The notes below the pieces were generated by a model that did no database searches, had not been told where the DNA came from, and saw only the letters and a list, made by a program, of their open reading frames with translations. A stretch of 64,000 nt of DNA from Cytophagales bacterium (GTDB taxonomy: Bacteria; Bacteroidota; Bacteroidia; Cytophagales; VRUD01): assembly GCA_019456305.1 (NCBI GenBank), contig VRUD01000013.1, positions 1,594 to 65,593 of the forward strand, in the 5' to 3' direction. This document shows positions 21,187-51,800 of the stretch, piece by piece. The position numbers and the translations under genes are program-made. The stretch's first letter is position 1, and each line of letters opens with the position of its first letter.

Positions 21187-21336
21187 TGAAATTCCGATAC
21201 GTTTAAAATAGAAAAAAATAATGATACAACATTTTGTTTCTTTTGGAAATGTCATAACTTTGTCTAAATGTTGAATTAAACTGATGCCAATATACGTATG
21301 TATAATGCTAATCCCGCCTTTGGCGGGACTAATGAT

Positions 21337-22527
21337 ATGAAAAACTATTTAACATACCTGTTTTTAATGATGCCTTTTTACCAGATTACCTATGCACAGG
21401 TCAATCCTGCCTCAACCATAGTGACTTTTCAAAAAACTTTTGGAGGAAAAAATGATGATATTGGCAATTCAGTTCAGCAAACTAAAGATGGGGGTTATAT
21501 TATCACAGGCGGTACGAGAAGTTCCGAAACAGAGCTTGATGATGTACTTCTGATAAAGACCGATGCTCTTGGAGATATTATATGGGAAAAATCGTTTGGA
21601 GAAAAAGGTAACGATGCCGGCTGGTCAGTTCAACAAACTGCAGACGGTGGCTATATTATTGCAGGCGAGATGAGCCATTCCAGGGCAGCGAAAACCTATG
21701 TCTATCTTATCAAGACCAATGCTAAAGGAGATGTTCTGTGGGAAAAATCGTTTGGCGGAAAAGATTACGATGCCGGTTATTCTGTTCAGCAAACTGATGA
21801 TAATGGGTATATTATCACAGGCGAAACCAGCAGCTTTGGAGCGGGGGTAGATGATGTTTATATAATTAAGACCTCTGTTAAAGACGATGACCATTTGACA
21901 AAGACCTATGGAGGTAAAGACAGTGATGTGGGTTATTCAGTGCAGCAAACTGCTGACGGAGGCTTTATTATCACAGGACTTACCAGCAGCTTTGGAGCAG
22001 GAGGCTTTGATGTTTATTTGGTCAAGACCGATGCCCGGGGAGAAGCGCTTTGGACAAAATCCATTGGGGGGAAACAAAGCGATGCCGGCAGATCAGTACA
22101 GCAAACTACTGACGGGGGTTATATTATAACCGGATTTACCGAAAAAGGAAATTTTGACGTTTATTTGATAAAGACCAATGCTGCCGGAGATACAATGTGG
22201 ACAAAAACCTTCGGAGGAACAGGCAGTGATGTCGGCTATTCAGTACAGCAAACTACTGATGGGGGGTATATCATCACAGGAGAGACCAGCAGCTTTGGAG
22301 ATGAAGACTTTGATGTTTATTTGATAAAGACAAATTTCAATGGCACAACGCTCTGGACAAAAACCTTTGGGGGAAAGGGCATTGATGTTGGCAGATCGGT
22401 CTGGCAAACTGCTGACGAAGGCTTTATTATCACAGGATGGACTGAGAGCAGGGGGGCAGGCGGTGTTGATGTATTGTTGATCAAAACCGATGCCAAGGGG
22501 AATTGCAAGGAACCCTCTAACAAATGA
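21337..22527 (+). CDS. secreted protein with nine tandem ~40-aa repeats (beta-propeller-like)
   Basis: It has the signal peptide MKNYLTYLFLMMPFYQITYAQ. Nine FGG..D.G.SVQQT.DGGYIITG...DV(Y/L)LIKT...G...W(T/E)K units follow. The track start at 21298 lies in a repeat. Confidence 0.7.
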   Translation: MKNYLTYLFLMMPFYQITYAQVNPASTIVTFQKTFGGKNDDIGNSVQQTKDGGYIITGGTRSSETELDDVLLIKTDALGDIIWEKSFGEKGNDAGWSVQQTADGGYIIAGEMSHSRAAKTYVYLIKTNAKGDVLWEKSFGGKDYDAGYSVQQTDDNGYIITGETSSFGAGVDDVYIIKTSVKDDDHLTKTYGGKDSDVGYSVQQTADGGFIITGLTSSFGAGGFDVYLVKTDARGEALWTKSIGGKQSDAGRSVQQTTDGGYIITGFTEKGNFDVYLIKTNAAGDTMWTKTFGGTGSDVGYSVQQTTDGGYIITGETSSFGDEDFDVYLIKTNFNGTTLWTKTFGGKGIDVGRSVWQTADEGFIITGWTESRGAGGVDVLLIKTDAKGNCKEPSNK

Positions 22528-22655: not shown

Positions 22656-22991
22656 TCACATATTTATAGTCTTAACATTTGCGACACTAGTATAAGTAAT
22701 ACTGTTTTTGTATCTTGATTTTTTTTCAACCAAGTCTAACAGACTACGTAAATTCTCATTTAATTTAATAAACCTTACCTTTTTGCCAAGCAAATTTAAT
22801 TTAGTCCTATGGCTGTGCAATTCGTCAAAAAAGGATCTTGTTGCATAAGATATTTCAGAAAAGTCCAGATTGATGTTATTCTCAGTTGATTTCGAGAGAA
22901 TATCAAATAGATCACGTGCTGCCTGTCGGGTAATTAAACCCGAGGCATTAAATAGTTGACTGATATTTATTACTTCATTTGACATAGTCAT
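22656..22991 (-). CDS. STAS-like domain protein (DUF4325)
   Basis: The core LDFSEISYATRSFFDEL and the 111-aa size match the DUF4325 pattern (DF.gV...s.SF.DE). Confidence 0.65.
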   Translation of the reverse strand: MTMSNEVINISQLFNASGLITRQAARDLFDILSKSTENNINLDFSEISYATRSFFDELHSHRTKLNLLGKKVRFIKLNENLRSLLDLVEKKSRYKNSITYTSVANVKTINM

Positions 22992-23477
22992 ATAAGTTAA
23001 ACGTAGAAACAGGCTTGTTAAGTTTCATCATAACGATTGTTCCCTTCCAATAGTATTTGGCAAAGTTAATGAATTTTTTACCAAATTTAGCAGAATGCCA
23101 AAATGCAGCATCACCAGACATGATGAAAAACTCTCCATTGAATTCTCTTTCTTTAAAGTTGAGCGAGGGAAAAAGAGATTTTTATTTGATTTTCTACGAA
23201 TGTTTCTGGTTAAACGAAAACCCATGCGGTGGGGTATGCTCTTTGCCACCGCAGGTACGAGGATGGCAATTGATAAAACTGCTGTGAGCCTTCAATACCC
23301 TACAACTCTACTTGAACTATACTAGGCTTTGACGTGAAGTATCTATGGAATATCCATGCCTTTGAAGTGGGGGAATTAGCGATGTGTTATGAGCGATCTC
23401 CACTTCTACATAATACAAAATATAAGCTATAAAAAAATAATATAGTAAATAATTTGGCATTTATGAACATAAATAGT

Positions 23478-23485
23478 TATATTTG
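23478..23485 (+). promoter_or_regulatory. candidate -7 box (TAtaTTTG) for the small-ORF/GHKL operon
   Basis: The sequence tatatttg lies 17 nt upstream of the ATG at 23503. Confidence 0.4.
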
Positions 23486-23502: not shown

Positions 23503-23727
23503 ATGAAAACAAAAAGAGAAAGATTTGAAATTATTGCTTCAAATAGAGTTCAAAAGATTATTGATACTCTTGATAGCTTGAGTAAGTGTTCTAACAGAAA
23601 TAACTATGAATATAATGAGATAGATATAAGAAAGATGGAAAAAGTATTCAAGGAAAAAATGAATGAGGTATTAGCTTTATTCAATAATGGTCTCAAGAAA
23701 GGGTATAAAACAGAATTTAAATTTTGA
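23503..23727 (+). CDS. 74-aa helical hypothetical protein, first gene of the GHKL operon
   Basis: The ORF is clean, Lys/Glu-rich and predicted helical by eye. It lies 54 nt upstream of the GHKL gene. Confidence 0.4.
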   Translation: MKTKRERFEIIASNRVQKIIDTLDSLSKCSNRNNYEYNEIDIRKMEKVFKEKMNEVLALFNNGLKKGYKTEFKF

Positions 23728-23781
23728 AGCAATAAATAATCGAGCATTACATGCTATATTACATCAATACTTGTATAGAAT

Positions 23782-26253
23782 ATGAACAATGAACAGGTCA
23801 AGCAATTGTGTCTGAGTCTAATGACGGCAGATACCGAACGAGATATTATTTCAATTCTCAAACAACATGGTTATTGGGAGAGGTCAGAGTTTTGGCGATA
23901 TTATGGAGACAAAGAGAATAATTACAGTGCTGCAGGTAACCAGGCTGACGAAGCTGAGGCAGCACTGGTGGAGAAAATTACGAATTCCAGGGATGCGATA
24001 TTGATGAACGAGTGTTGGATGAAAGCTATAGAGCCAAAAAGCGATGAGGCACCGTCTGGCGTAAAGGAGGCTGTTGCAGAATTTTTTGAAGAAAACCCAA
24101 AGAACGAATTGGCGGGGCAAATAAAAGAATGGTCAAAAGAGAAAAGGCGTGAAATTGCTAAAAACATATCTGTTTATATAACTGGAAATAAGCCAGCAAA
24201 GGATTTGTTTCCTTGCATTAATATTGCCGATAAAGGTGAAGGTCAAACACCACTCGAAATACCTAATACCATACTCTCATTAGGAGAATCTATTAAAAGG
24301 AAGATACCCTTTGTGCATGGGAAATGGAATATGGGTGGCACTGCAGCATTGGTTTATTGTGGAAAGGCCAATTTACAATTAATTGTAAGCAGAAGGAATC
24401 AGCAGTTGATCAAGGATGAGGAACGGAAAGAAACTGATAATAATTGGGGTTTTACTATTGTGAGAAGGGAAGACCCAGTTGGCAAAGAAACATCATCAAC
24501 GTACAAATATCTAGCACCTGTTGAAGCAGAAGCAAACCCTGGTAAGGGTGAATTATTAAACTTTAATAGCAACACCTTCCCAATTTTTGCAAAATATAAT
24601 GAGCCGTATTCTGTGAAATCAGAGTGGGGTACACTTGTAAAACTATATGAATACGAGACCAGGTACAAGCAAAATGTGCAGGGAAGTGGAGGACTGTTGC
24701 GCCCTTTAGATTTGTTGGCACCTGATCTTGGCTTGCCCTTCCGTCTGCATGAATGCCGATACGAAGGAACTCCTGGCTCTTTTGAACATCAAGTTAATGG
24801 CCTGCGTGTAAGGTTATACGATGACAGAGGAAATGCGCTCGAACCAGGATATCCAACTTCGCATAATACCGTAACTAATGGAGAACCATTTTCATTCTCT
24901 TTATATGCCTTTAAGGATGACAAGGCAAAAACATACCGTGACAGCGAGAAAGGTGTCATTTTTACTCTCAATGGTCAAAGTCAGGGATGGTTTGATGATA
25001 GAATTTTCACAAGAAATAAGGTTAGTTTGGGATTCTTGAAGAACTCCTTGCTGTTAATTGTAGATTGTAGTGGTTTAAGCTATCGGGCGCAGGAGAAACT
25101 ATTTGTAAATGATAGGGTGCATATAAGAAAGGGGCCATATAGAGATAAAATCGAAGATGAAATAATCGACTATCTTGCTAATCACCAGGGGTTAAGCGAC
25201 TTGCAAGAAGAAAGGAAAAGGCAATTGCAAGCTGACAAACTTGATGATTCAAAGCCATTGGAAACGGTGCTGTCAAGTGTGTTCAAACATTCAAGTGCCC
25301 TATCAAAAATATTCCTGAAAGGTCAACGGCTTTCCAACGCTTTTAGATCCGAAAGGGTTGAGGGTAAAAACAAGGATTACAAAGGCCTTCCGTATCCGAC
25401 ATATTTCAAATTCAAAAAACTTGATTATGGTAAAGTGCTTGCTCGTGATGCATTTCAGTCGACCAGGTCAAGAATTGGATTTGAAACCGATGCTGAAAAT
25501 GATTATCTGATAAGAAAAACTAATCCCGGTAGCTTCAAGTTGTTCCTGAAGGATGAAAAAGGAAACCTCATTGAGGCAAAGCAAAAGCACGTAGTCTATG
25601 GATTGAGCTTACTAAATGGCATTGCGATCGTGAATATTGATATTGATTCACAAATGAAAACAGGGGATAAGGTACGCTTTATGCTTGAAGTGACTGATCC
25701 TATGCGAATTGCGGAACCCCCATTCCAAAATGAGTTTGTACTGACTATTTATCCGAAACCAACCAAAAGAACAGGGGGTAAATCAATGAGGTCTAAACCA
25801 CCAACCACTATTCCAGGTAAAGATAGAGATAAATCGGGTGGGGTTAAATTTCCAAAAATTTACCAAGTCAACGAAAGTGAATGGGGTAAGCATGAGTTTA
25901 ATAAGTTCTCGGCAATGAGAGTTGTTAAATCCAAAATTAATGAAAACGGTAAGAATGAGGTTGAATTTACATTTTATGTGAACATAGATAATATCTACTT
26001 GCAGCATGAGGTAAAGGATAATATTGAGGATAAAAAAACAACAGAGGCTTATTTCAAATATGGTATGGCTTTGCTTGGCATATCAATTATTTATGACGAC
26101 CAGCAGAACAAGGATGAACAAAATAAGTATGAGGGTATTGAAGAAAGAATCGCTGGATTTTCAAGGGCAATGGGACCAATGATAATACCCATGATTAAAG
26201 AATTTGGAGACCTTGACTTAAAAGATGAACTGCTTGAACAGTTAGCTGATTAA
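23782..26253 (+). CDS. GHKL (Bergerat-fold) ATPase, MORC/paraMORC-like, with an unassigned ~500-aa C-terminal region
   Basis: The N-box EKITNSRDA is at aa 64-72 (nt 23971-23997). The G1 box DKGEG is at aa 150-154 (nt 24229-24243). The G2-like GKWNMGG is at aa 180-186 (nt 24319-24339). Confidence 0.75.
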   Translation: MNNEQVKQLCLSLMTADTERDIISILKQHGYWERSEFWRYYGDKENNYSAAGNQADEAEAALVEKITNSRDAILMNECWMKAIEPKSDEAPSGVKEAVAEFFEENPKNELAGQIKEWSKEKRREIAKNISVYITGNKPAKDLFPCINIADKGEGQTPLEIPNTILSLGESIKRKIPFVHGKWNMGGTAALVYCGKANLQLIVSRRNQQLIKDEERKETDNNWGFTIVRREDPVGKETSSTYKYLAPVEAEANPGKGELLNFNSNTFPIFAKYNEPYSVKSEWGTLVKLYEYETRYKQNVQGSGGLLRPLDLLAPDLGLPFRLHECRYEGTPGSFEHQVNGLRVRLYDDRGNALEPGYPTSHNTVTNGEPFSFSLYAFKDDKAKTYRDSEKGVIFTLNGQSQGWFDDRIFTRNKVSLGFLKNSLLLIVDCSGLSYRAQEKLFVNDRVHIRKGPYRDKIEDEIIDYLANHQGLSDLQEERKRQLQADKLDDSKPLETVLSSVFKHSSALSKIFLKGQRLSNAFRSERVEGKNKDYKGLPYPTYFKFKKLDYGKVLARDAFQSTRSRIGFETDAENDYLIRKTNPGSFKLFLKDEKGNLIEAKQKHVVYGLSLLNGIAIVNIDIDSQMKTGDKVRFMLEVTDPMRIAEPPFQNEFVLTIYPKPTKRTGGKSMRSKPPTTIPGKDRDKSGGVKFPKIYQVNESEWGKHEFNKFSAMRVVKSKINENGKNEVEFTFYVNIDNIYLQHEVKDNIEDKKTTEAYFKYGMALLGISIIYDDQQNKDEQNKYEGIEERIAGFSRAMGPMIIPMIKEFGDLDLKDELLEQLAD

Positions 26254-27411
26254 CCTGTGAAATAGTACAACCTCATTTGAACTGGGAGTTTTGCCTTTAT
26301 TTTGTGTATACCATTTGCGGTTGGGTACTTCTCTCCAAATTCTTGATTTGAATGGCTTAATTTCATAGAACCCAGCCAATTTCATCACTTCAAGATACTT
26401 AGGTAGCTGCCATTCAGGTTTGGAAAACGCTAATACCTGGACAATAAGGGTTTCGTTGTCACAAACCTTTGCGACAGAAGAAAAGGTATCCTTGATATTT
26501 TGGAAGTAATTAATAAGCCCTTCCTGCTGCCGATTGCCCATCGTGTAATGAGTCAACCCATGCCCGTCTAAACTATTTGCAATCCAGAAAGGTGCCGGGG
26601 TTTCTTTGCTACCATGTATTTGCCAACGGTGATAGACCACGTGAATACCTGGGTAAGGTGGAGATGTGAGAACCAACTTTGGTGAGTTCGATTTTTTAAG
26701 CGTTCTTGACCGTTTGATTTCAATTGCTGGTTTATTGATTTGCAAAGACATAACATCGTTTTTATGTTCAGCAAGTGCGAATTTGAGTTGGGTAGAGCCA
26801 ACGAGCATTTGCTCTATTGTAGTCCATAATTTAGCACGGAATCTCTTTGCGGAAGGGATTTCTTTTTTTGAGTCAAGTGCCCATTGCCCTGTCTTCAACA
26901 AAACACAACGCAAAAAATTCTTTACTTTTACTGTAGTCCTTACTTTTTCAAGGTCATTGATAAACTGTTCGGATAATTTGCGAATTGGCCATGTGGTTTT
27001 GTTAGATAAGTTTCTTTGGTAGCCAGCTTCAATCCATTGTTCAGGTCGTTCTGAGTGAGATTTGCAGTTCATTTTTTTAATTGTCAAGGCAGTCCACTTT
27101 TTAACAAATTCAGTTTCTTTCTCTGTTAATGGGGAAGTTTTGACTGAGGCAATAAAGTACGCCAAACTGCTTATGTCAAACCCAATGGCAGGTCTATTAA
27201 GAATCTGCGCTTCAACTAAGGTTGTTCCTCCACCCATGAAAGGGTCGAGAATAAAGTCTCCAGGTTCAGTGAATGATTCAATTGCTTCTCTGGCGAACAA
27301 TGGTGAGAATCGAGCCGGATAATTATAGAAATCATGGGTGTATCCTGATACCGTACTTCGGTCATTAACGGCTTTTACAAAAGTATCCAGATTTATTCCT
27401 TTTGCTATCAT
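26242..27411 (-). CDS. DNA methyltransferase, alpha-class motif order, SPPY catalytic motif (N4-cytosine or N6-adenine)
   Basis: Motif I DPFMGGGTT is at aa 56-64 (nt 27220-27246). Motif IV SPPY is at aa 250-253 (nt 26653-26664). About 190 aa lie between them, presumably the target-recognition domain. Confidence 0.85.
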   Translation of the reverse strand: MIAKGINLDTFVKAVNDRSTVSGYTHDFYNYPARFSPLFAREAIESFTEPGDFILDPFMGGGTTLVEAQILNRPAIGFDISSLAYFIASVKTSPLTEKETEFVKKWTALTIKKMNCKSHSERPEQWIEAGYQRNLSNKTTWPIRKLSEQFINDLEKVRTTVKVKNFLRCVLLKTGQWALDSKKEIPSAKRFRAKLWTTIEQMLVGSTQLKFALAEHKNDVMSLQINKPAIEIKRSRTLKKSNSPKLVLTSPPYPGIHVVYHRWQIHGSKETPAPFWIANSLDGHGLTHYTMGNRQQEGLINYFQNIKDTFSSVAKVCDNETLIVQVLAFSKPEWQLPKYLEVMKLAGFYEIKPFKSRIWREVPNRKWYTQNKGKTPSSNEVVLFHRLIS

Positions 27412-27412
27412 G

Positions 27413-27616
27413 TTAGTTTTTTGTTGATACGAGTAGTTCTCTTATGTCCACATCTAGGATTCTTGCTATTTTTTTTAAATTTGTTAAATGCGGTTGTGAT
27501 TTATTGTTACAAATCGATGCAATGGAGGTGGTGCTTTTTCTAAGTTTCTCCGCAAGCCATTTTTGTGTTTTACCTTGAATTACAAGTATCTCCTTTATTC
27601 GATTGATACGCTCCAT
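27413..27616 (-). CDS. XRE/Cro-type HTH transcriptional regulator (C-protein-like)
   Basis: KTQKWLAEKLRKSTTSIASICNNKSQPHLTNLKKIARILDVDIRELL is a canonical HTH_3. Its stop lies 1 nt before the methyltransferase ATG. Confidence 0.85.
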   Translation of the reverse strand: MERINRIKEILVIQGKTQKWLAEKLRKSTTSIASICNNKSQPHLTNLKKIARILDVDIRELLVSTKN

Positions 27617-27635: not shown

Positions 27636-27656
27636 AATATAAGTTCTGCTTATATT
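27636..27656. promoter_or_regulatory. candidate operator: inverted repeat aatataag-N5-cttatatt
   Basis: The 8-bp arms are perfect and lie 20 nt upstream of the HTH start. A third aatataag half-site sits at 27678-27685. Confidence 0.45.
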
Positions 27657-27683: not shown

Positions 27684-27844
27684 AGAATAATTAATGTTAA
27701 TAACTAATATTTGAATGTTGATAAAAGCAAGCTCTTTTGCAAAGTTTTGGTTTGCCTATCAACAACTTCCTGTTGGTATCTTGTATATCAGATTATTAAA
27801 ACCAGATGAAACATATTAACTTTGCATTCGTAGGATTCCAACTA

Positions 27845-28729
27845 ATGTATTACCGGAGAAAAATATTGCTTGCGTTGTTAGAGAAAATGGGCGGTAAGCT
27901 ACTGCCTACCGATATGCAAAAACTACTTTTCCTGTTTTGCGAAAGACAAAGGGAAAAGAACTACGAGTTTGTACCATACCGTTTCGGTGGTTTTTCCTTC
28001 CAGTCGTATGCCGACAAACGTACCCTTACAAAATATGGTTATTTAAGTGATGTGGACGGATGGGAACTGACCGATAAGGGCAGAAACTTCAGCAGTACAT
28101 TAAAAAATGAAGATCAAACTGCGTTGCAACAGGTTGCGGCAAGGTATGGCAAAATGCGGGGCAACCCATTGGTGAAGGAAGTTTACCGGAATTACCCGTA
28201 TTATGCCATTTACAGCGAAATATTGGAAAAGGTGCTGTCACAGGAAGAAATAAAGAAAGTGGAAGCGCAGAGGCCAAAAGAGAACAGCGAAGCGTTTTTT
28301 ACGATCGGCTACGAGGGTATCTCGCAGGAACGATATCTTAACAAACTGATAAAAAACAATGTGAAGCTGCTTTGTGATGTGCGGAAAAATCCGCTTAGCA
28401 TGAAGTACGGGTTTTCAAAAAATCAACTAAAAGATGCTTGCGAGCATGTCGGCATACAATATTTGCATATCCCTGATTTGGGAATTGTCCCGGAAAAGCG
28501 AAAGGAACTCAACACCAAAGAGGATTACGAAAGATTGTTTGAGGAATACGAGCGCACCACTTTGCGGGAAGAAAAGGAGTCGTTAGACCGGTTGCTGACT
28601 TTGTTGAAACAATACAAGCGGATTGCCATTACCTGTTTTGAAGCATGTGAAACGCAATGCCATAGAGGCAAGGTAGCCAAAACGTTGCAAAAAATGCCGG
28701 AATGGAAATATCCTGTAAAGCACCTGTAA
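27845..28729 (+). CDS. winged-helix-like N-terminal domain fused to a DUF488 domain
   Basis: The C-terminal half matches the DUF488 pattern (FFTIGYEG, LLCDVRKNPLS, GIQYLHIPDLG, ITCFEACETQCHRGKVA). I prefer the start at MYYRRKILLALLEK over the track start at 27806. Confidence 0.7.
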   Translation: MYYRRKILLALLEKMGGKLLPTDMQKLLFLFCERQREKNYEFVPYRFGGFSFQSYADKRTLTKYGYLSDVDGWELTDKGRNFSSTLKNEDQTALQQVAARYGKMRGNPLVKEVYRNYPYYAIYSEILEKVLSQEEIKKVEAQRPKENSEAFFTIGYEGISQERYLNKLIKNNVKLLCDVRKNPLSMKYGFSKNQLKDACEHVGIQYLHIPDLGIVPEKRKELNTKEDYERLFEEYERTTLREEKESLDRLLTLLKQYKRIAITCFEACETQCHRGKVAKTLQKMPEWKYPVKHL

Positions 28730-28730
28730 A

Positions 28731-29546
28731 ATGGCAAAACAACGCGTATTGATTACCGTCAAGACCTACCCGACCATTTCTAAAAAATACGATGAAATAG
28801 TTTGCACTGCCGGATTTACGGCAGAAGGCAAATGGATTCGTCTTTACCCGATTCCATTTCGCAAGCTGGATTACGTTCACCAGTACAAGAAGTACGATTG
28901 GGTGGAAATGGATTTAACCAAAAACACCAGTGATTTCAGGCCCGAAAGCTACCGGCCTGTTAATATAGATGTTGACGAACCTGTTAAAGTTGTTGGGCAT
29001 ATTGAAACAAAAGACAATTGGGCCGAACGGAAAAATATTGTATTGAATACGGTGTATGACGATTTAGAGCGATTGATTTTAGAAGCAAAGGATAAAAAGG
29101 TTTGTACTTCGCTTGCGGTTTTCAAGCCGACAAAAATTCATGATTTTATTTGCGAAGCAGTTGAACGGGAATGGGATAACAAGAAGAAAGAACAATTGTT
29201 ACAAATGAAACTGTTTGAGCAAAAGAGGGATTTTGAAGTTGTTCGGAAACTGCCCTACAAGTTCAGCTATGTGTTTGAAGATGTAAACGGCAAGAAACCA
29301 ACTTTGATGATAGAGGATTGGGAAATTGGCGCTTTATATTGGAACTGTCTTGCCCGCAATGAAGGTGATGAAAAAGCAGCTTGCAAGGAGGTAATAGCGA
29401 AATACTTTGATGATTTTGCCAAAACCAAAGACCTGTATTTCTTTTTAGGAACTACAAAAGTGAATCATTTTGTAGCAAAGAACCCTTTTATCATTATAGG
29501 AACTTTCCATCCTAAACCGGTAACTCAATTAAAATTAGACCTGTAA
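28731..29546 (+). CDS. 271-aa hypothetical protein, translationally coupled to the DUF488 gene
   Basis: The ATG follows the upstream stop by 1 nt. The ORF is clean with balanced composition. No family is recognised. Confidence 0.6.
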   Translation: MAKQRVLITVKTYPTISKKYDEIVCTAGFTAEGKWIRLYPIPFRKLDYVHQYKKYDWVEMDLTKNTSDFRPESYRPVNIDVDEPVKVVGHIETKDNWAERKNIVLNTVYDDLERLILEAKDKKVCTSLAVFKPTKIHDFICEAVEREWDNKKKEQLLQMKLFEQKRDFEVVRKLPYKFSYVFEDVNGKKPTLMIEDWEIGALYWNCLARNEGDEKAACKEVIAKYFDDFAKTKDLYFFLGTTKVNHFVAKNPFIIIGTFHPKPVTQLKLDL

Positions 29547-30717: not shown

Positions 30718-31731
30718 CTACTTTTTTCCTTTTAATTTTTTGACTTCCTGTTCCAATCGTTTCATTTCCTCTGCATCCAATGCTTCAATTTGTTGTTTAC
30801 GGAATGTTTTATATTCGTTTTCTGCCAGTTCCTTTGCCATTTTATGCGATATTCTGCCGGCATCCAACAGTATTTCCCGTTCGTTCAGTGTCAAAAAAGC
30901 ATTGAGTTTTTTCTCCCAGTCGTTCATGTACATAGATTTGCGGTTACGCGCCTGCAATTCTCCAAATGCTAAGTACTGTTCTACAATAAGATTCAATTCA
31001 GTCAGTTCATCCTGTGAAAGATAGTTTTTAGCTACGGCAACATCTGTTTTGCGGATTTTTCCTTCAGGGCTATTTTTCCATGAGGTAAGTCCCATGCTGG
31101 GCTTTTTTGCATTCGTACGCTTGTAAATTATTTCTGCTGCTGTATGACCGTGTATTGCCCAGTGCATTTTGTTTTGCACAGCGGCAAAAAACCTTTTGGC
31201 TTGTTCACTTTGGGTGTCATAATCAATGCTTGTGGTGTAAATATCTTTTATCTTAGCGTAGAAAATCTTTTCAGAGCTTCGGATGTCCCTGATTCTTTCT
31301 AATAGTTCATTAAAGTATTGATTTGTGTGGCCTGTTTCTTTAAGGCGTTCATCATTGAGGGTAAAACCTTTGATAATGTATTCTCTGAGACGTTGGGTAG
31401 CCCAGATCCTAAACTGTGTGCCCCTATGCGACTTCACCCTGTAACCAACGGAAATTATAACGTCTAAGTTGTAGTATTCCAGGTCGCGTGAAACCTCTCT
31501 GCTGCCCTCAGTTTGAACTGTTCGGAAATTCCGAACAGTTGCTTTGTCCTGGTGAAGCTCGCCTTCTTCAAAAACATTGCGAATGTGCTCGCTGATAGTG
31601 CTTTTTGCCTTCCCGAAAAGCTCGGAAAGCTGGTTTAGCGTAAGCCAAACCGTTTCATTGTCTAACCGCACCTCAATTTTGGTTTGTCCGTCTTCTGTTT
31701 GGTACAATAATATTTCCGATTTACTTTTCAT
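30718..31731 (-). CDS. rhuM: RhuM-family protein (Fic/DOC-related virulence-associated family)
   Basis: ILLYQTEDGQTKIEVRLDNETVWLTLNQLSELF...NLDVIISVGYRVKSHRGTQFRIWATQRLREY is the characteristic RhuM N-terminal region. Confidence 0.85.
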   Translation of the reverse strand: MKSKSEILLYQTEDGQTKIEVRLDNETVWLTLNQLSELFGKAKSTISEHIRNVFEEGELHQDKATVRNFRTVQTEGSREVSRDLEYYNLDVIISVGYRVKSHRGTQFRIWATQRLREYIIKGFTLNDERLKETGHTNQYFNELLERIRDIRSSEKIFYAKIKDIYTTSIDYDTQSEQAKRFFAAVQNKMHWAIHGHTAAEIIYKRTNAKKPSMGLTSWKNSPEGKIRKTDVAVAKNYLSQDELTELNLIVEQYLAFGELQARNRKSMYMNDWEKKLNAFLTLNEREILLDAGRISHKMAKELAENEYKTFRKQQIEALDAEEMKRLEQEVKKLKGKK

Positions 31732-38112: not shown

Positions 38113-41100
38113 TTATCTTATCAGTGTTACATCTCCATTTAAAGCCCCTTTTGTTCCATCGGTAAACTCAGCCTCGACATAGTAAACAAATACAGCCATA
38201 TTCTGTTCTTTTCCATTGTGTTTTCCATCCCAGCCTACATCCGGGTCATTAACCGGAAAATCATTATTTTCAAATACTATTTCTCCCCACCGGTTATATA
38301 TTACAAATTTGATCTTTTCTATATTGATTCCTCTGACGTAGAATTCGTCATTCTTTTTATCATTATTTGGAGAAAAGGCATTGGGGAGCCATAGCTGATT
38401 TTCTATACAAGTATCTTTCAAAGTTACGATCACTGAATCTACATTGGAGCAGCCATTTACATCAGTAACTTTTACAATATATTCAGTTGTAATCTCAGGA
38501 TTTGCTACAGGATTAAAAATGTTTATATCACTTAATGTCGGATCAGGATTCCATAAATACTTAATACCACCCGTTGCATTTAATGAAATACGCTCTTCGG
38601 GGCACACTGAAAGATCATTTCCTGCATCGGCATTTGGTAAAGCATTCACGTATATAAATTTATTTTTAAAAACCGAACAATTAGCATTGGAAAAAGTATA
38701 AGTCAGCATTACGGTATCTCCTCCGGTTAACACAGAATCAAAAATGCCTAAGTCAGGATCAGTTATTCCTGCTCCTGACCACATCCCCCCAAGCGGACTA
38801 TATCCACCTAGCGTAAACGACACGTTACCTTCACAAACAGAAGTATCATTCCCAGCATCTACAGATGTAAAAGGGATTACAATAGTTACTATCGGATTAC
38901 CCGGAGTGCTTTGACAACCTGAACAGGTTACCTCGACTGTTAAGCTGTTTGTATCACCAAGAAGATTTGTAGTAAAAATACTATCTGTACCGCTCTGTAT
39001 CAAAATGGCATTATTATAAAAATCATAATTACCACACCCTGCCGGCTCTGCTGTAAAAGTTATGCTTTCACCACTGCAAATAGAATCATCAGAAGCTGTT
39101 AAAGTTACTATTGGCAATGGGTTGATGATAATGGTAACAAATGAAGAAGGGCTTACACAGAGACCCACGGTTTCAATTACGTAATAAATTGTTGTTCCTA
39201 TAGTAGTATCCGGAGAAAATGTTGTTCCTGTACCTATGACTGTGTCTAATCCAGGGTCTGAATACCATGTCAGAGTTCCGCCCATTGATGCTGATGCCGT
39301 CAGATCAGTCATTGAATCACCATCACAATAAGTTGCATTGGTTCCGGCCGAAGGTAGAGGAGGCGTACCTGGCGCAGTCATAGTTACTGTATCTCCAAAA
39401 ACCCCGCAATTATTACTATCGGTAACCACAACGTAATAATTGCCGGAAGTCAATCCTGTAAAATTTCCACTACCGGTAAAGGTAGCGCCACCATCAATAG
39501 AATATAATAACGGAGGCGTACCACCTACTGCATAAATAGTAATTGTACCATTATCTACCCCGCACATATCAGGGTTTGTTGATGATGTAGAATCTATAAC
39601 AGGCAAAGGGTTAACCGTAATTACAACAGAATCAAGTGGACTTTGACAGCCGCTTGCAGTTTGGGTTACGTAGTAAGTAGTTGTGCCGGTACCGGGAGAA
39701 ATAGTAAATGGGGAGTCGGTTCCGATTGAAGTTGTAAGCCCCGGATCGGAGAACCATTCAATGTTAGTACCCGTTGCAGTAAGGTCTGCTACTGCACTTC
39801 CATCACAGTAGGTAGTATCAGCTAATGCTGTTGGAGCAGCAGGTATTGGATTTACCGTAAAAATTAAAGCATTGCTAATGGGACTCACACAACCATTAAT
39901 GTCAACAACACCTACCGTAACGCTGTCTCCATTGATTAAAGTGGTCGTGGTGTAGGCGCTGTCCGGGCCACCCTGTACCAAAGAACCGTTAATTATAAAT
40001 CCATATAAGCTGTAAACAGGTGGGGATGCGGTAAAAGTTACGCTATCTCCGGTACAAATCGTATCACCGTCTGAACTGCTTAAACTCACACTGGGCACAG
40101 GATTCACAGTGATAAGAATAGAATTGCTGGTTGGGCCGGGACACCCGAGAATATTAGGAACTACCACAGTGATGGTGTCTCCGTTTGAGAGGGTATCTGT
40201 TGAAAAAGTATTTGATGGCCCTGATTGTACAGAGGTGGTATTAACCCAAAATTCATAGTTAATATAAAAGGTTGGTGTAGCAGTAAAGGTTATGGTGTCA
40301 CCCTGGCATATCGTGCTATCCGGGTCATTAATGGTCAAAGTAGCTTTTGGCGTAGGCACTACTATGGGCGTTAATAAAGCGATGGGATTGGTGAAGCATC
40401 CACCGGCAGATGCTATTACCTGTACACTATCGCCTGGCGCTAAACTGTCTGTTGTATAAATATTACTCGCACTATTCTGTACGGAAACACCGTTAATTAA
40501 AAATTCGTAGCTGACAAAACCTGACGGCACTGCCGTAAAAATGATGGTATCCCCTTCACAGATGCTGTCATTCGTAGCTGTTAAATTTAAGGTTAAAGCG
40601 CTTGTATCAACAGTAACCGTAATAGTATCTATTGGTTTTCCACAACAGGAATCAGCGGGCGTCAGGTTTAAAATGATATTATATGTTCCCACGGTATTAA
40701 AAAAAATGTTATTTACGTTTTGCAGGCCGGCTCCTGCCAAAGTATCAGGAGATGCACCTCCACCGAAAGTCCATTCATAAAATACACCCGAAAGTGTGGA
40801 TGAAAAGTCTATTGGACAGCCTGCTGATATGGTTGTATCGTTAGGGCTGATAAAATTCCCTGAAGCAACCCCTGATCTGAAAATATGTACATAATCAGTA
40901 AAGGTTGTTGTTCCGAAAATAATGGTTTTTCTCCCCAGAGTTGAATAAGTTACAGAAAACGGTCCGGTACCGGTTGCACTACCAGGTGTAGCGTTAGCAC
41001 CAAAATCCCAGATATCGGATGTTGGAGCAGTAAAGATAACTTCCACATTGGTACAGCCCACGTTGAGTACACTGATAAACGGAAGGTTACCCGGAACAGC

Positions 41101-42642
41101 AATAATGCCTAACACTATTGCAGCAGTACCACCCGGGTGTTCGTATAGTGGTAAATTTTCGCCTGATTGTCCATCTAGACCATCTCCACCAGCAACGCCA
41201 TCACCACCACTGCCGCCATGTCCGCCACATCCGATATCATCATTAGAAAATTGATATCCTAGTCCCACGGCACCACCGGTACCGCCACTACCTCCAAAAC
41301 CGCCATTTCCACCCAAACCAAATGAACCTGAAATTAAATTACAATCCTGGATTACACCACCTGCACCATTGTCGAATAAATAAACGGCATAAGAAGATCC
41401 GCCACCTTCGCCACCGGTTCCTCCAGCGCCACCTTCACCGCCTCCACCTCCACCGCCTCCGCCATCACCTGCACCGGCAGAGCATCCAAAAAGTACCTCT
41501 TTCTCACCGGCACCACCGCCTCCGCCATGCCCCCCTTGTCCACCGCAGCCATCAGTACCTGAAAACCCGGGAGTTCCAGTAACCCAATACCCACCCGCAT
41601 GTGAACCGGTTCCTCCGGGCAATCCGGTACTTCCGGGAGCTCCAGAGATGCCGGAGTTGCCGTCTTTACCTGATAAATTAAAATCGCAATTAGCCCCATC
41701 GTTACAGCTTCCACTTTGAATACCCGGACCACCACCACCAGTATTCGCACCTCCACAAGCCGGGCACCAGCTACCATTCCCGCCAGATCCTCCATTTAAT
41801 GCATCACCCAAAAAACTGCTGGTTGCTTGACCACCGCTTGCACCACCACCACCACCGCCACCGGCACGGCAGTTGCTAGGAATTACTCCCGCACCACCAT
41901 TATCTCCCACACAACCACAACCTGATGACAATGTACCTCCGGAACCTCCGGTACCGCCTCCTACACCGCCACCGGTACCGCCAGTACCACCCTGACCTTC
42001 TTGGTCCCACGTATCATCAGCCCCTCCTGTTCCATTTCCACCGGGATTACCAGGTAGCCCGTTGGCACCCGTTATTCCATTTACACCATCTCCACCATTA
42101 CCGGCAGTTACGGCACAACGAGTGATGTTGTAATTAGAACAACTGATCAAATGAATACCATAAACAGTTATCCCGGTGTTGACCGGTGCATCTACAACAG
42201 TGATCGTCAGATCCTGCAGCCTGAAATTAGAAATAGTGTTACCTTCCAGGGCGATCAATGCTTTATTTATATTATCAGGGTTAAGTGAATCCCTTGCTAT
42301 AATGCTGCTGTCTGCATTGGTTTTTACCCAGGTGACCGGGTCAAAGCCGCCTTCAATGGTTGTATTGGCAGGTATCTGTAAGGTATTTGAAATATTGTAA
42401 ACGCCATCAGCCAGCCACACGATCGTATCGGAAGCAATAACGAGGCTTAATCCATAGGTTAAATTGGCAGGTGTAGCCTTGGTGCCTGCAATGCCACTTG
42501 TTGCGCCTGCGGGAATTACGTATATGACGCCACATTCCTGGGCGTAGGATTGAATCCCTGTAAAATCGGGAGAAAATTGAAAATTGAAAAATAATGCTAG
42601 AAATACGCCAAACGATTTAGCCTTTAATAAATTTAGTTTCAT
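38113..42642 (-). CDS. giant adhesin-like protein with a T9SS type B (gliding-motility-associated) C-terminal sorting domain
   Basis: The C-terminus LWLPNAFSPNNDKKNDEFYVRG...YNRWGEIVFE is present. There are multiple Ig-like CxGD(T/S)ITFTA modules. A Gly-rich region of about 300 aa spans aa ~185-500. Confidence 0.85.
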   Translation of the reverse strand: MKLNLLKAKSFGVFLALFFNFQFSPDFTGIQSYAQECGVIYVIPAGATSGIAGTKATPANLTYGLSLVIASDTIVWLADGVYNISNTLQIPANTTIEGGFDPVTWVKTNADSSIIARDSLNPDNINKALIALEGNTISNFRLQDLTITVVDAPVNTGITVYGIHLISCSNYNITRCAVTAGNGGDGVNGITGANGLPGNPGGNGTGGADDTWDQEGQGGTGGTGGGVGGGTGGSGGTLSSGCGCVGDNGGAGVIPSNCRAGGGGGGGASGGQATSSFLGDALNGGSGGNGSWCPACGGANTGGGGPGIQSGSCNDGANCDFNLSGKDGNSGISGAPGSTGLPGGTGSHAGGYWVTGTPGFSGTDGCGGQGGHGGGGGAGEKEVLFGCSAGAGDGGGGGGGGGEGGAGGTGGEGGGSSYAVYLFDNGAGGVIQDCNLISGSFGLGGNGGFGGSGGTGGAVGLGYQFSNDDIGCGGHGGSGGDGVAGGDGLDGQSGENLPLYEHPGGTAAIVLGIIAVPGNLPFISVLNVGCTNVEVIFTAPTSDIWDFGANATPGSATGTGPFSVTYSTLGRKTIIFGTTTFTDYVHIFRSGVASGNFISPNDTTISAGCPIDFSSTLSGVFYEWTFGGGASPDTLAGAGLQNVNNIFFNTVGTYNIILNLTPADSCCGKPIDTITVTVDTSALTLNLTATNDSICEGDTIIFTAVPSGFVSYEFLINGVSVQNSASNIYTTDSLAPGDSVQVIASAGGCFTNPIALLTPIVVPTPKATLTINDPDSTICQGDTITFTATPTFYINYEFWVNTTSVQSGPSNTFSTDTLSNGDTITVVVPNILGCPGPTSNSILITVNPVPSVSLSSSDGDTICTGDSVTFTASPPVYSLYGFIINGSLVQGGPDSAYTTTTLINGDSVTVGVVDINGCVSPISNALIFTVNPIPAAPTALADTTYCDGSAVADLTATGTNIEWFSDPGLTTSIGTDSPFTISPGTGTTTYYVTQTASGCQSPLDSVVITVNPLPVIDSTSSTNPDMCGVDNGTITIYAVGGTPPLLYSIDGGATFTGSGNFTGLTSGNYYVVVTDSNNCGVFGDTVTMTAPGTPPLPSAGTNATYCDGDSMTDLTASASMGGTLTWYSDPGLDTVIGTGTTFSPDTTIGTTIYYVIETVGLCVSPSSFVTIIINPLPIVTLTASDDSICSGESITFTAEPAGCGNYDFYNNAILIQSGTDSIFTTNLLGDTNSLTVEVTCSGCQSTPGNPIVTIVIPFTSVDAGNDTSVCEGNVSFTLGGYSPLGGMWSGAGITDPDLGIFDSVLTGGDTVMLTYTFSNANCSVFKNKFIYVNALPNADAGNDLSVCPEERISLNATGGIKYLWNPDPTLSDINIFNPVANPEITTEYIVKVTDVNGCSNVDSVIVTLKDTCIENQLWLPNAFSPNNDKKNDEFYVRGINIEKIKFVIYNRWGEIVFENNDFPVNDPDVGWDGKHNGKEQNMAVFVYYVEAEFTDGTKGALNGDVTLIR

Positions 42643-48820: not shown

Positions 48821-51800
48821 CTACATCAACCCTCTCACTCTCGCCAGACTCAGTCCGGTTACTTCTGCTATAAATTGGATATCTGACCCTTTTGCCAGCA
48901 TTTTCCCTGTTATCTCATACCTTTCATCCTTCCTCGCCTTCTTCACGATCGTATTCTCCACCCTCTTAGTGAGCATTTTTACGCTAAAGTCTCGCTGTGT
49001 TTTTACCTTCAGCCTGGCGGTGGCGCGGGCGATGCGCAGGACGAAGCCCTCAAACGGAATGAGCAATGCGCCTATGGACACATTAAGCACGATCTTCAGG
49101 ATAACGATACCGGTGATGTAGGAGGCAAGCGCCTCCTCGGTGTAGTTTTGCGCGTACTCCAGCACTAAGAAGATGAACATATAAGCAAGTACTTTTATGA
49201 GCTTCTGGCGTTTTTCTCCTGTGCCGCGCAGCATTAGTATAATACAGAACAAGCCGAACAACACCCCGCCCTGCAGCGCATAAAACCACCACGTTAACCA
49301 CCAGGGCGGCAGGATGCGAAAGCGGTACTCCCCTATAGCACTCTCATGCCCATACACATTCTTTGCCTTTACCCTGAAGGTGTATTTGCCGGGGTCTAAG
49401 TTGGTGAAGTTGGTTTTGGTTTCTGTGCTCCACGGGCTCCAGTCTTTGGTAGTACCCTCCAGGAAAAAGCTGTACTGCGTTTTCTCTTCCTTTACATAAA
49501 AAGGCGCAGCAAAGCGGAAAGTGAAATTATTCATGTCATAAGGGAGTACGGGCGCCATTGCTGCCGGCTGTTTTTGTACTACACGCGGCGCTGCCGTGCC
49601 GGTATTATAACCAAAGCCGCCATACAGCACCGTATCTCTTATCACACCCGGTTTCCCCCCTTTGGTGGGAGGGCGATGTCCAGTGGACATTGAGCCAGCC
49701 TGTGGGAGGGGGGCTCTCACTTCGGTGACCATGCAGGGGTAGGGATGCTCATAATTCAATACAATCGAAGGATCATACCGCAGTAGCCCGTCATCTCCGC
49801 CTATCCATATTAACCCATCCTGCGCAGGGTAAATGACGCGTGGAACCCCTATATTCATGCTCAAAAAAGGGATGGTATCCACCATGTATGCACCTTGCGG
49901 GGTTAATTTGCAGTGAACGACCTTACTTTTACTTGACATCCACACATCCCCGTTGGGCGCCTGGAAAAAGCTGTATACCGGCCTTCCCGTATCTGCAAAC
50001 ATTGCTCCAAACTGGGTGCAGGGTATGATCCTGTAGCGCTTCCTGTCAGGGGTAGAGACACGGTGCACCGTGTCTCTACCCCCTCCTGGGGCTGCTTCGT
50101 ACAACCCCTTATCAGTACACACCATCACCTCCCAGGTTCCATCAGGAGATTTCCAGGGGAAAACCCCGGTATATCCTTCCGGTACTTCCCTGCCTGCCTG
50201 ATAATGCTCATGCCCGGTCACATTTCCATGCTCATCCACGAGTATCCGGTGCACTCCCTCATAGATTGTGCCTGCCCACACCTCGGTAAGGGTTGTATCG
50301 GAAGGCAGGGGACGGGTAACTATATCATATATTTCTCTTATCTCCTTATTCGAAAGGAGTTGTTTTGACTCCCAGCCTGGGTGACCCTGCCGTTGAGCTA
50401 CTCTGTATAAACCATCCCTGCCGCCTGTAAATATAGCTCCCCTGTGGCTGATGGCAAGGCCTTGACTTTGTGCTTTCAGTATTTTCTCAACAATTACATC
50501 ACTTTCAACTGATTTTCCGACTGCCGACTGTTTACCCCGTAGGGAGAAACGACCGTACTGGGGCCGACTGCCGACTTGTTCACGGGCGGGTTGTATGGAA
50601 TATAAGCCGACATTTCCTGCAAGGATAAACCTGCCGGTTGGAGGATGGTACCGGATGTTCCGACACTGACTTTCAATGCCCGGTACTTTTTGAAACAGGC
50701 TGCCTGTTGCTGCGGAACCGGTCATTTTCGCTTTGCTTTCCCTGCCGCCAGCGCTGTAATAACAGCCCTGTGCTGTGGCAAGCCACACAGCAGCAGCCGG
50801 GGTATTTTCATTCATGATGGCAATGGATTGAATTTTTCCATCTATCCCATCATTGTATCCATACCAGCCAACGGGTGAGGGAAACTCTAACCGGCTGATA
50901 CCGTTGTTAGTGCACAGCCATACAGCGCCCGGGGGCGCTGCTTCCATAGCGCCTGATGCAGCGGGAAGATACAACTGGTTCCATATAAGGTTATCACTCA
51001 GCCCCTCTTTTTTACTTAAATGGAACAGCGGGGTCAAAGCCATGCCGCCTGCCCCGTTGGATCCTTCTTCCATCCAACCTGGGCCGGTCAGCTCCAAACC
51101 AACTATTCCGTCATTTCGTGTTCCTGCCATGTACAGGGGAGGGATGCCGCTGAAAGAGAGCAATGCCGCGTTATAGGGTAATGCAGAAGGGTTGTAGCGC
51201 ACGTATTGTCCGTTCCTGATGAGCAGCCCTCCCGGACCCGCCTGCCATAGGCCTTTGGCCTGTCCGCCAGACAGGCGGGCGGGCAGGTTTTGAAAATCCG
51301 GCAGCTCCGTATCAGCGCCCGTCACCCCGGGGTAAACCTGCCCTGCCGCTTTGTCGTACCGGTAAAAGCCACCGGGCTTCACATACAAAAGCAAGCCGGT
51401 ATAGTTACCGGCAGCCATCGCTTCCCCGGTTGCGTCCGGATAAACCTGCTGTACGGGATGAAGGGCATAAATGCGTCCTTCTTTTACAATGGTTTTGGTA
51501 CCGGGAAGCAGCTCCCATGCTGTTCCGCCTGCCCCGTCCGTAAGATTAGGATCAAAGGTAAGGATGCCCAATCCATCATGCTGGATATAAAGCGATGCCT
51601 CTGTATCTTTCCGGTTTCCCCCGGCATTGCCGGTTGCAGGGGCAGTTCCTCCGGCTTCGACCAGGGCGGGTGCATAAAATGAACTGAAAAACAGGCCGGA
51701 AGTGGTGGTATTTAACTTTTCCGTGTTTTCCTTTTTGGCGCTGCCGGCCTGCCCCGTACCGGAGGCCGGGGGTATTTGTTCCTGCCTGCCTGTTATTTCA

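Follow-up and report, generated by a model that had tools for sequence, protein, structure and literature searches.

We analyzed a locus in a 64,000-nucleotide stretch of DNA (the window) from a Cytophagales metagenome-assembled genome (MAG; GenBank assembly GCA_019456305.1, contig VRUD01000013.1), in which a gene for an ATPase of the GHKL (Bergerat-fold) superfamily lies tail-to-tail with a DNA methyltransferase gene. On balance, we think it fairly likely that this locus holds an intact defense module linked to DNA modification, one of a large family that has escaped annotation, and that the ATPase is its restriction side. An earlier note on this DNA, made from the sequence alone, had proposed a candidate restriction module of the MORC/paraMORC type. 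The GHKL ATPase, its near-obligatory methyltransferase, and its place in a defense island support the restriction module, but the assignment to MORC/paraMORC is not supported.

The ATPase-methyltransferase pair

On the open reading frame (ORF) map, which covered 19 to 32 kb of the window, the gene for the ATPase, the proposed restriction-side engine, occupies positions 23782 to 26253 on the plus strand and encodes 823 amino acids. The methyltransferase gene, assigned by a PF01555 match and a family alignment, occupies positions 26242 to 27411 on the minus strand and encodes 389 amino acids. The two convergent 3' ends overlap by 12 bp (26242 to 26253), exactly as the earlier note had described them. 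An identical 12-bp overlap is found in Flagellimonas and Robiginitalea, whereas at distant loci the convergent ends overlap by 4 bp or are separated by a gap of 6 to 8 bp.

The ATPase family has more than 1,269 close homologues, all annotated as “hypothetical,” and comprises 3,105 clusters at 50% identity with E ≤ 1e-3, 1,136 of which reach E ≤ 1e-30. Its distribution is sporadic and patchy, with 385 matches among ~185,579 species-representative genomes. The phyla represented, at least a dozen, include Bacteroidota, Acidobacteriota, Planctomycetota, Chloroflexota, Verrucomicrobiota, Bacillota, Proteobacteria, Nitrospirota, Cyanobacteria, and Patescibacteria. Members were also found on five viral contigs, and the INPHARED phage collection contained no match.

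Across 80 genome loci, the methyltransferase is the sole conserved neighbor of the ATPase. Methyltransferases of the same SPPY family are encoded at 77 of these loci, at ~72 of them directly tail-to-tail with the ATPase gene, and all five of the contexts inspected by hand show a convergent, abutting copy. Of the other three loci, two stop at a contig end and one is cut by a DDE transposase, and the 80 loci include no assessable case of a GHKL gene that lacks the methyltransferase. The interrupted copy lies on a Patescibacteria contig (L078, 1729 to 4771); there, the transposase (PF01609, E 1e-30) truncates the GHKL gene at about amino acids 590 to 624 and occupies the place at which the methyltransferase gene would be expected to start, a case of inactivation by insertion.

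The linkage was also examined in reverse, using 80 metagenome loci anchored on the methyltransferase. A GHKL relative was detectable by tblastn at 61 of the 80; 12 to 13 of the remaining loci were too short to judge, and the others encode split or more divergent GHKL proteins, the divergent neighbors matching HATPase_c_3 (E 2.7e-5 and 0.0039) or HATPase_c (E 1e-10). The earlier note had raised the possibility that this methyltransferase family is normally an orphan; instead, every assessable methyltransferase locus has a GHKL neighbor, fused or split. The linkage is close to obligatory in both directions, and the conserved core is two genes.

Architecture of the two proteins

Neither as a single sequence nor as a 44-sequence profile did the 823-amino-acid protein match an entry in Pfam, NCBIfam, PADLOC, or the PDB sequences. 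The Pfam profiles HATPase_c and HATPase_c_3 did not match the window protein, and only 4 of its 44 relatives touch HATPase_c_3, with a best E value of 0.075. In an alignment of 44 sequences that are 42 to 80% identical to the window protein, however, residues E64, N68, D71, D150, G152, G154, G180, G185, G186, G283, and T284 are invariant. The three motifs listed in the earlier note (EKITNSRDA at amino acids 64 to 72, DKGEG at 150 to 154, and GKWNMGG at 180 to 186) were all recovered in the translation, and a fourth Bergerat motif, G283-T284 in “WGTLVKLYEY,” is present beyond them. Motif I, which in GHKL ATPases supplies the catalytic Glu and the Mg-binding Asn, reads ExxxNxxD (E64-K-I-T-N68-S-R-D71-A), and relatives in which the ATPase is split into two genes keep ExxxNxxE. 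D150, G152, and G154 form motif II (DxGxG); G180, G185, and G186 belong to the Gly-rich ATP lid of motif III; and G283 and T284 make up motif IV (GT).

The AlphaFold2 model of the protein has a predicted local distance difference test (pLDDT) score of 79 overall, with values mostly from 80 to 97 over amino acids 58 to 300 and ~70 over amino acids 161 to 190. Foldseek matched this model to GyrB-43K, ParE, Hsp90, and SMCHD1 with E values from 8.8e-10 to 5e-8 and a probability of 1.00, at sequence identities of 9 to 13%. The four invariant motifs and the fold match bear out the GHKL call: by alignment and model, the protein belongs to the GHKL superfamily, and it is predicted to hydrolyze ATP.

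The ATP-binding domain, delimited by the invariant residues and Foldseek, spans motifs I to IV (amino acids 58 to 300; positions 23953 to 24681, plus strand, as for all segments of this gene). It is preceded by an N-terminal helical region with a conserved loop, “WRxYGDxENN..GNQ” (amino acids 1 to 57; 23782 to 23952), delimited from the alignment, in whose 44 sequences W32, W38, R39, Y41, N47, G52, and Q54 are invariant. By analogy with GyrB and MutL, this region probably serves the ATPase dimer as its N-terminal strap. A transducer-like second domain (amino acids ~301 to 485; 24682 to 25236), suggested by Foldseek and predicted secondary structure, ends in long helices. It conserves R445 and an NGQ loop (N397, G398, and Q399), the split family included; this loop may resemble the QTK loop of GyrB. 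The Foldseek alignments, of ~385 to 430 columns, span the whole of the 363- to 390-residue two-domain GyrB/ParE fragments, with template modeling scores, TM(target), of only 0.38 to 0.47 and root mean square deviations of 8 to 10 Å.

The earlier note could assign no motif to the last ~500 amino acids. As far as nucleases and helicases are concerned that statement holds, but domains have since been delimited from the models. Beyond a charged linker of low confidence (amino acids 486 to 534; 25237 to 25383; pLDDT of <50 at amino acids 486 to 531) lies an immunoglobulin (Ig)-like β-sandwich (amino acids ~535 to 660; 25384 to 25761) with an acidic cluster, E568, D570, and D639, that is conserved in the 44-sequence alignment. 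It was recognized in a separate model of amino acids 520 to 823 (pLDDT of 86), for which the top 50 Foldseek matches listed are mostly Ig-type domains, with a few chains of glycoside hydrolases among them (E ~6e-6 to 1e-4). A basic disordered linker follows (amino acids 661 to 691; 25762 to 25854; pLDDT of <50) and carries the motif RxKPP..GxDR[ED]xPxG, in which P674, G679, R682, and G687 are near-invariant and P691 is invariant in the alignment; the linker may have a role in DNA or partner binding. The protein ends in an α/β domain (amino acids 692 to 823; 25855 to 26250), seen in the model and the alignment, that consists of a β-hairpin, a “VN(M)DN” motif (N734, D736, and N737), and a helical bundle. 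Foldseek gave no fold match for this last domain, which is probably a constitutive dimerization domain by analogy with MutL, Hsp90, and MORC.

Of the profile and structure searches of the C-terminal region that the earlier note had proposed, the structure search returned Ig-type domains, and Foldseek searches of both models, the full-length one and that of amino acids 520 to 823, returned no nuclease fold. Several candidate sites were considered and set aside. D736...E743-x-K745 resembles a PD-(D/E)xK site, but E743 and K745 fall in a predicted helix and ExK is missing from the split family. The β-β-α element at amino acids 712 to 746 was considered as a His-Me finger, but no conserved His stands at the end of its first strand. 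The invariant “YGDxENN” loop is unlikely to supply catalytic acids because Arg replaces both D43 and E45 in the split-gene relatives, and “RLHECR” is not kept in the split family either.

The split form accounts for ~10 metagenome loci (L111, L115, L138, L145, L159, L161, L164, L165, L169, and L135), where the two ATPase genes retain a partner from the same methyltransferase family. The first protein, of ~365 to 400 amino acids, contains the GHKL domain and half of the transducer-like domain and corresponds to amino acids 7 to 359 of the window protein (hhalign probability, 99.3%; E 9e-21). The second, of ~605 to 640 amino acids, begins with the equivalent of amino acids 389 to 480 (probability, 96.6%), and a later part of it aligns weakly, at a probability of 71%, to amino acids 609 to 741, including “INxD.” The natural split point thus falls within the transducer-like domain. 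Fused and split forms alike keep the ATP motifs, the NGQ loop, R445, and, in the C-terminal domain, N-x-D, while YGDxE and RLHECR are confined to the fused form.

The methyltransferase matches PF01555 (E 5.8e-15) over amino acids 29 to 82 only, which correspond to the C-terminal part of the profile, and its motif order therefore appears permuted relative to PF01555. The order is X-I, a variable target-recognition region of ~145 residues, and then IV. In an alignment of 30 family members, D56, G60, G61, and T63 of the S-adenosylmethionine (SAM)-binding motif I, DPFMGGGTT (amino acids 56 to 63; 27223 to 27246, minus strand), are invariant, as is the whole of the catalytic motif IV, TSPPY (amino acids 249 to 253; 26653 to 26667, minus strand). 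Between them, the target-recognition region (amino acids ~96 to 240; 26692 to 27126, minus strand) has a mean pairwise identity of 27%, versus 51 to 53% in the flanking catalytic parts, and such a hypervariable center would be expected of a family that has many specificities. PADLOC labels the protein MTase_II, and its closest PDB relatives are DNA cytosine-N4 methyltransferases (E 1.5e-9); the predicted product is probably N4-methylcytosine.

Gene shuffling, mobile elements, and neighboring genes

Pairwise identities of the GHKL proteins and of their methyltransferases are only loosely related (Spearman correlation, 0.21), and partial correlations between each GHKL segment and the target-recognition region are zero or negative. 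Loci L020 and L023 illustrate the point: their ATPases are 81% identical from end to end, Ig-like domain included, while their methyltransferases are 45% identical, the target-recognition regions are 28% identical, and the upstream partner genes come from different families. The opposite case also occurs, with methyltransferases that are >80% identical beside ATPases that are 56% identical. The two genes are shuffled independently of each other. Since so similar a pair of ATPases sits beside such different methyltransferases, the ATPase seems to have no matching specificity domain. As a pattern, this is that of Type I and Type III systems, in which the modification side gives specificity to a conserved motor.

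Copies of the module also lie in mobile DNA. In a Marinacidobacterales MAG (L003 and L013), it sits within a prophage, flanked by lysis-type genes (HNH/SLT) on one side and by the genes for the small and large terminase on the other, a position typical for phage-carried defense cargo; other copies are flanked by insertion sequence (IS) elements or integrases. Five plasmids carry distant GHKL relatives (22 to 27% identity), one of which is a clear family member (hhalign probability, 100%; E 1.7e-59; amino acids 8 to 641). These relatives stand beside PADLOC-confirmed SspA, SspB, and SspC on a Devosia plasmid (L174), beside PADLOC-confirmed SspC and SspD on a Hymenobacter plasmid (L172), and, on an Ensifer plasmid (L173), beside a PAPS-reductase family gene that is SspD-like by annotation only. 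The relative on the plasmid of the archaeon Halogeometricum adjoins a different DNA methyltransferase.

We speculate that the Ssp-linked relatives may serve Ssp systems as a restriction partner that has so far gone undescribed; for 84% of sspBCD clusters, no such partner is known (PMC8092258). Of the contextual arguments for a restriction-side role, the strongest is that the same engine accompanies self-marking modules of two different chemistries. On the Ensifer and Devosia plasmids, the relatives also adjoin a second GHKL-type “sensor histidine kinase” of 776 to 786 amino acids and an uncharacterized protein of 635 to 680 amino acids. These kinases (L173, 2378 to 4708; L174, 11687 to 14047) match the PADLOC Type II restriction endonuclease profile PDLC03419 (E 1e-12 and 2.8e-9, respectively), which puts a GHKL-like region under at least one restriction-enzyme profile derived from REBASE.

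The slot upstream of the ATPase gene is filled by genes from at least seven unrelated families. In the window, it holds a small helical ORF of 74 amino acids (23503 to 23727, plus strand), which we call accessory upstream family A. This ORF is 61% identical to a Flagellimonas ORF at the equivalent position, and its family lies upstream of the GHKL gene at 20 of the 80 other loci, in several phyla, but it had no credible Pfam match and no PADLOC match. The earlier note had placed this ORF in the ATPase operon; it is indeed conserved at that position, but as one of several interchangeable upstream genes. Proteins of ~76 amino acids, as in the window, are encoded at 21 loci including the window, proteins of ~380 amino acids at 18, and proteins of ~210 amino acids at ~16. 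By eye, the ~380-amino-acid proteins have a ribbon-helix-helix N terminus; their C termini gave only weak winged-helix-type Pfam matches (PaaX/MksE, E 0.03 to 0.17), and the 74-amino-acid ORF shows no similarity to them that would make it a fragment of this partner. A PIN (VapC-like) gene fills the slot at 11 loci (L019, L025, L027, L032, L033, L038, L039, L043, L047, L051, and L055), 9 of which also carry an AbrB-type antitoxin gene, and the pair may be a stabilizing toxin-antitoxin system that travels with the module. HARE-HTH, PC4, and HTH_17 proteins make up further families.

On the other side of the module, a 67-amino-acid ORF (27413 to 27616, minus strand) encodes a Cro/C1-type helix-turn-helix (HTH) protein (PF01381, E 6.6e-12), a candidate local accessory controller. 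Its stop codon is 1 nucleotide upstream of the methyltransferase ATG, and copies at L007 and L011 are 72 to 82% identical. Control by an HTH protein, which the earlier note had made part of its description, does not extend to the family: a Cro/C1 HTH is encoded by just 7 of the 56 ORFs that precede methyltransferase genes, a count that includes the window. Both the 74-amino-acid ORF and the HTH gene of the window are accessory parts, probably regulatory. A perfect 8-nucleotide inverted repeat, AATATAAG-N5-CTTATATT, at positions 27636 to 27656, 20 to 40 nucleotides upstream of the HTH start, is a candidate operator, although it sits in an AT-rich region where chance could yield such a repeat. 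TAnnTTTG-like elements, which we take to be of the Bacteroidota -7 type, precede the HTH gene and the 74-amino-acid ORF, the latter element at 23477 to 23484.

A 111-amino-acid ORF just upstream of the module on the opposite strand (22656 to 22991, minus strand) has a weak STAS-like match (DUF4325, E 0.0036). STAS proteins often partner GHKL kinases, and we considered this ORF as a partner of the ATPase by analogy with SpoIIAA/AB, but none of the 80 related loci contains it.

In the window, the module lies within a defense island of ~9 kb. Directly beyond the HTH gene, PADLOC identified PDC-M19A (307 amino acids, DUF488 domain, E 2e-123) and PDC-M19B (271 amino acids, E 2.5e-125) at 27806 to 29546 on the plus strand, a pair that is a separate, uncharacterized candidate system. 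The far end of the island is marked by a RhuM-family gene (30718 to 31731, minus strand; PF13310, E 1.8e-114; PADLOC PDC-S05, E 1e-144), which adjoins an NAD synthetase-like housekeeping gene. Directly before the island, positions 21298 to 22527 (plus strand) encode a 409-amino-acid protein with about nine tandem repeats of ~40 residues (“SVQQTxDGGYIITG...DVYLIKT”). Elsewhere in the window, two stretches (38113 to 42642 and 48821 to 52354) have a G+C content of 0.46 to 0.53 against a background of ~0.37, and both lie inside very large genes, for a 1,509-amino-acid CHU_C/T9SS surface protein and a 1,177-amino-acid Y_Y_Y/Reg_prop protein. Rfam and tRNA scans of the window gave no matches, so the high-G+C stretches are not rRNA and no tRNA-type integration site was found.

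Known systems and competing explanations

GHKL ATPases of the MORC and paraMORC1 to paraMORC5 groups were predicted in restriction-modification operons by Iyer, Abhiman, and Aravind in 2008 (PMC2292703). The window family shares with them an N-terminal GHKL domain, followed here by a putative transducer-type domain, DNA methylase neighbors, a patchy horizontal distribution, and the predicted part of an ATP-driven organizer or engine of restriction (PMC2292703). It differs in its C terminus, an Ig-like sandwich and a helical domain in place of the RE-fold nuclease of paraMORC3, the TIR domain of paraMORC4, or the HxH of paraMORC5, and inspection of the 44-sequence alignment revealed neither a conserved HxH nor the conserved ExxxH of the S5 domain. 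Of the neighbors of MORC and paraMORC genes (superfamily 2 [SF2] helicase, Vsr, HNH, and RE-fold proteins), none was found at the 80 loci of the window family. Membership in MORC/paraMORC, as the earlier note proposed it, is thus not supported, given a HATPase_c_3 score below threshold, the missing helicase or endonuclease partner, and a C terminus unlike the extensions described in PMC2292703. We regard the window family as most like the GHKL restriction systems of Iyer et al. (2008) and as Type III-like in the logic of its specificity.

Like Type I and Type III enzymes, the module would be ATP dependent, with a conserved motor-side subunit and freely varying methyltransferase target-recognition regions. 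The Type III Res subunit, however, combines an SF2 helicase with a PD-(D/E)xK nuclease, whereas the window ATPase is a GHKL protein that matched no such profile; Type III genes form a mod-res operon, whereas here the genes are convergent; and the order X-I, target-recognition region, IV with SPPY sets the methyltransferase apart from Type III Mod. In MutL, GyrB, ParE, Hsp90, and SMCHD1, as in the proposed architecture, an N-terminal ATP-gated dimerization module is followed by a transducer and, as we infer for the window protein, C-terminal dimerization into a clamp. The window ATPase has neither the MutL endonuclease motif nor a Toprim domain nor an SMC hinge. SMCHD1 carries Ig-like domains between its ATPase and its dimerizing hinge.

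We know of no GHKL ATPase with a demonstrated role as a methyltransferase's restriction partner, and literature searches found no paper describing this ATPase family. The nearest experimental case is VcSduA, a paraMORC3-type Shedu protein, in which a GHKL ATPase is needed for antiphage defense and is modeled as a dimeric clamp (PMC12137116). VcSduA is a single gene with no methyltransferase, and its GHKL domain is fused to a DUF4263 PD-(D/E)xK nuclease that the window ATPase lacks.

In the mechanism we propose, the methyltransferase would mark host DNA, probably as N4-methylcytosine, and the ATPase would act on DNA without its partner's modification. The ATPase would dimerize through its C-terminal domain, and its N-terminal ATP gate would close around DNA in the manner of MutL, GyrB, Hsp90, and MORC. 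Because the ATPase has no co-varying specificity domain, it would take its specificity from elsewhere: self/non-self information could come from the methyltransferase, much as Type I and Type III systems rely on their modification side, or from whichever DNA-binding protein is encoded upstream. DNA might then be disabled by a cryptic new nuclease site, for which N734/D736/N737 or E568/D570/D639 are candidates, or by a non-nucleolytic block. A more specific version, which we put forward as a tentative and rather unlikely idea, is that the ATPase is a nuclease-free, MORC-like, ATP-gated clamp that is loaded on unmarked invading DNA and blocks or compacts it, a portable engine serving both methylation and phosphorothioation modules and relying on them, not on its own recognition domain, to tell self from non-self.

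Several observations weigh against a restriction-side ATPase that is guided by its methyltransferase. Profile, structure, and locus searches found a nuclease or helicase neither in the 823-amino-acid protein nor conserved beside its gene, so the argument for restriction comes from context alone. The role of the methyltransferase as specificity subunit is weakened because the Ssp-linked relatives exist without this methyltransferase family. The dependence of the ATPase on the methyltransferase is drawn only from the shuffling pattern, the choice of 4-methylcytosine over 6-methyladenine is a motif-based guess, and a convergent pair of separately controlled genes is closer to the layout of Type II than to that of Type III systems.

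That layout, with a C-protein-like HTH gene, is one reason to consider a classical Type II system, in which the ATPase would be an ATP-stimulated endonuclease with its own recognition (for example, through the Ig-like domain) and a cryptic nuclease in its C-terminal third. The methyltransferase has the SAM-binding and catalytic motifs of a Type II enzyme (DPFxGGxT and TSPPY, both invariant); the clusters E568/D570/D639 and N734/D736/N737 are conserved, the latter in a C-terminal domain that has no fold assignment; and a REBASE-derived Type II profile covers the GHKL-like region in neighbors of the distant relatives. In Type II systems, however, independent recognition by the restriction and modification enzymes would not tolerate the shuffling we observe, and this disfavors such a reading. 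Near-identical GHKL proteins with identical Ig-like stretches pair with target-recognition regions that are 28% identical, no GHKL segment co-varies with that region, and the partner shows no restriction-modification co-evolution. It also has no recognized endonuclease fold or restriction endonuclease profile, and its best PD-(D/E)xK candidate, D736..E743xK745, is the helical one that the split family lacks. We consider a Type II system unlikely.

BREX and MANTIS (Gao_RL) resemble the module in that a site-specific methyltransferase marks self and ATPases are essential, and BREX also in having no obvious nuclease and in placing specificity in the methyltransferase. They differ in their size, four to eight genes, and in their AAA+/BrxC, PglZ, or helicase-nuclease proteins, none of which is present in the window module. 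Gene content rules out identity with MANTIS/Gao_RL, and the ATPase matches no PADLOC model.

MANTIS nevertheless offers a precedent for ATPase-dependent methylation (bioRxiv 10.64898/2026.09.23.753747), and the GHKL protein could correspondingly load or activate the methyltransferase in an ATP-dependent manner, as MtsA/MtsB do for MtsC, within an epigenetic module or the modification half of a larger system. The strict two-way linkage and the lack of a detectable effector domain would fit such a helper. PF01555-type methyltransferases, however, normally act alone, and the patchy horizontal distribution in defense islands, a prophage, and IS-flanked sites speaks for defense. That no assessable GHKL locus lacks the methyltransferase is better explained by a toxic ATPase than by a helper, and the relatives that pair with SspABCD accompany a module known to modify DNA alone. 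This explanation seems to us doubtful, slightly more so than a Type II system. A MutL-like repair or housekeeping function, in strand discrimination or repair at methyltransferase sites, is very improbable: the proposed architecture of GHKL, transducer, and dimerization domains resembles MutL, which acts with the methyl-directed MutH (PMC2292703), but the family is sporadic and found in mobile elements and defense islands, its target-recognition region is hypervariable, and no MutS, MutH, or UvrD was among the genes called near the module at five inspected loci.

The Ssp systems bear on the preferred reading, that of an ATPase on the restriction side of a defense module, from another direction. 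In SspABCD-SspE and SspABCD-SspFGH, the restriction partner is expected where the distant GHKL members sit, beside SspA, SspB, SspC, or SspD. By published descriptions, SspE (DUF262/nuclease) and SspFGH (Walker A, FtsK-like) are unrelated to the window ATPase, and identity with SspFGH is unlikely on the same grounds (PMC8092258). The Ssp systems use phosphorothioation, whereas the window module uses base methylation.

The family is invisible to Pfam, NCBIfam, and PADLOC, and its two-gene core makes it an unusually clean system. If the ATPase restricts DNA, it would do so either by a new nuclease chemistry or by a nuclease-free, clamp-type restriction. The Ssp-linked relatives may supply one missing restriction partner for the ~84% of sspBCD clusters that have no known one (PMC8092258). 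A restricting ATPase of this kind would also bear on the origin of the eukaryotic MORC and SMCHD1 silencing ATPases from bacterial conflict systems.

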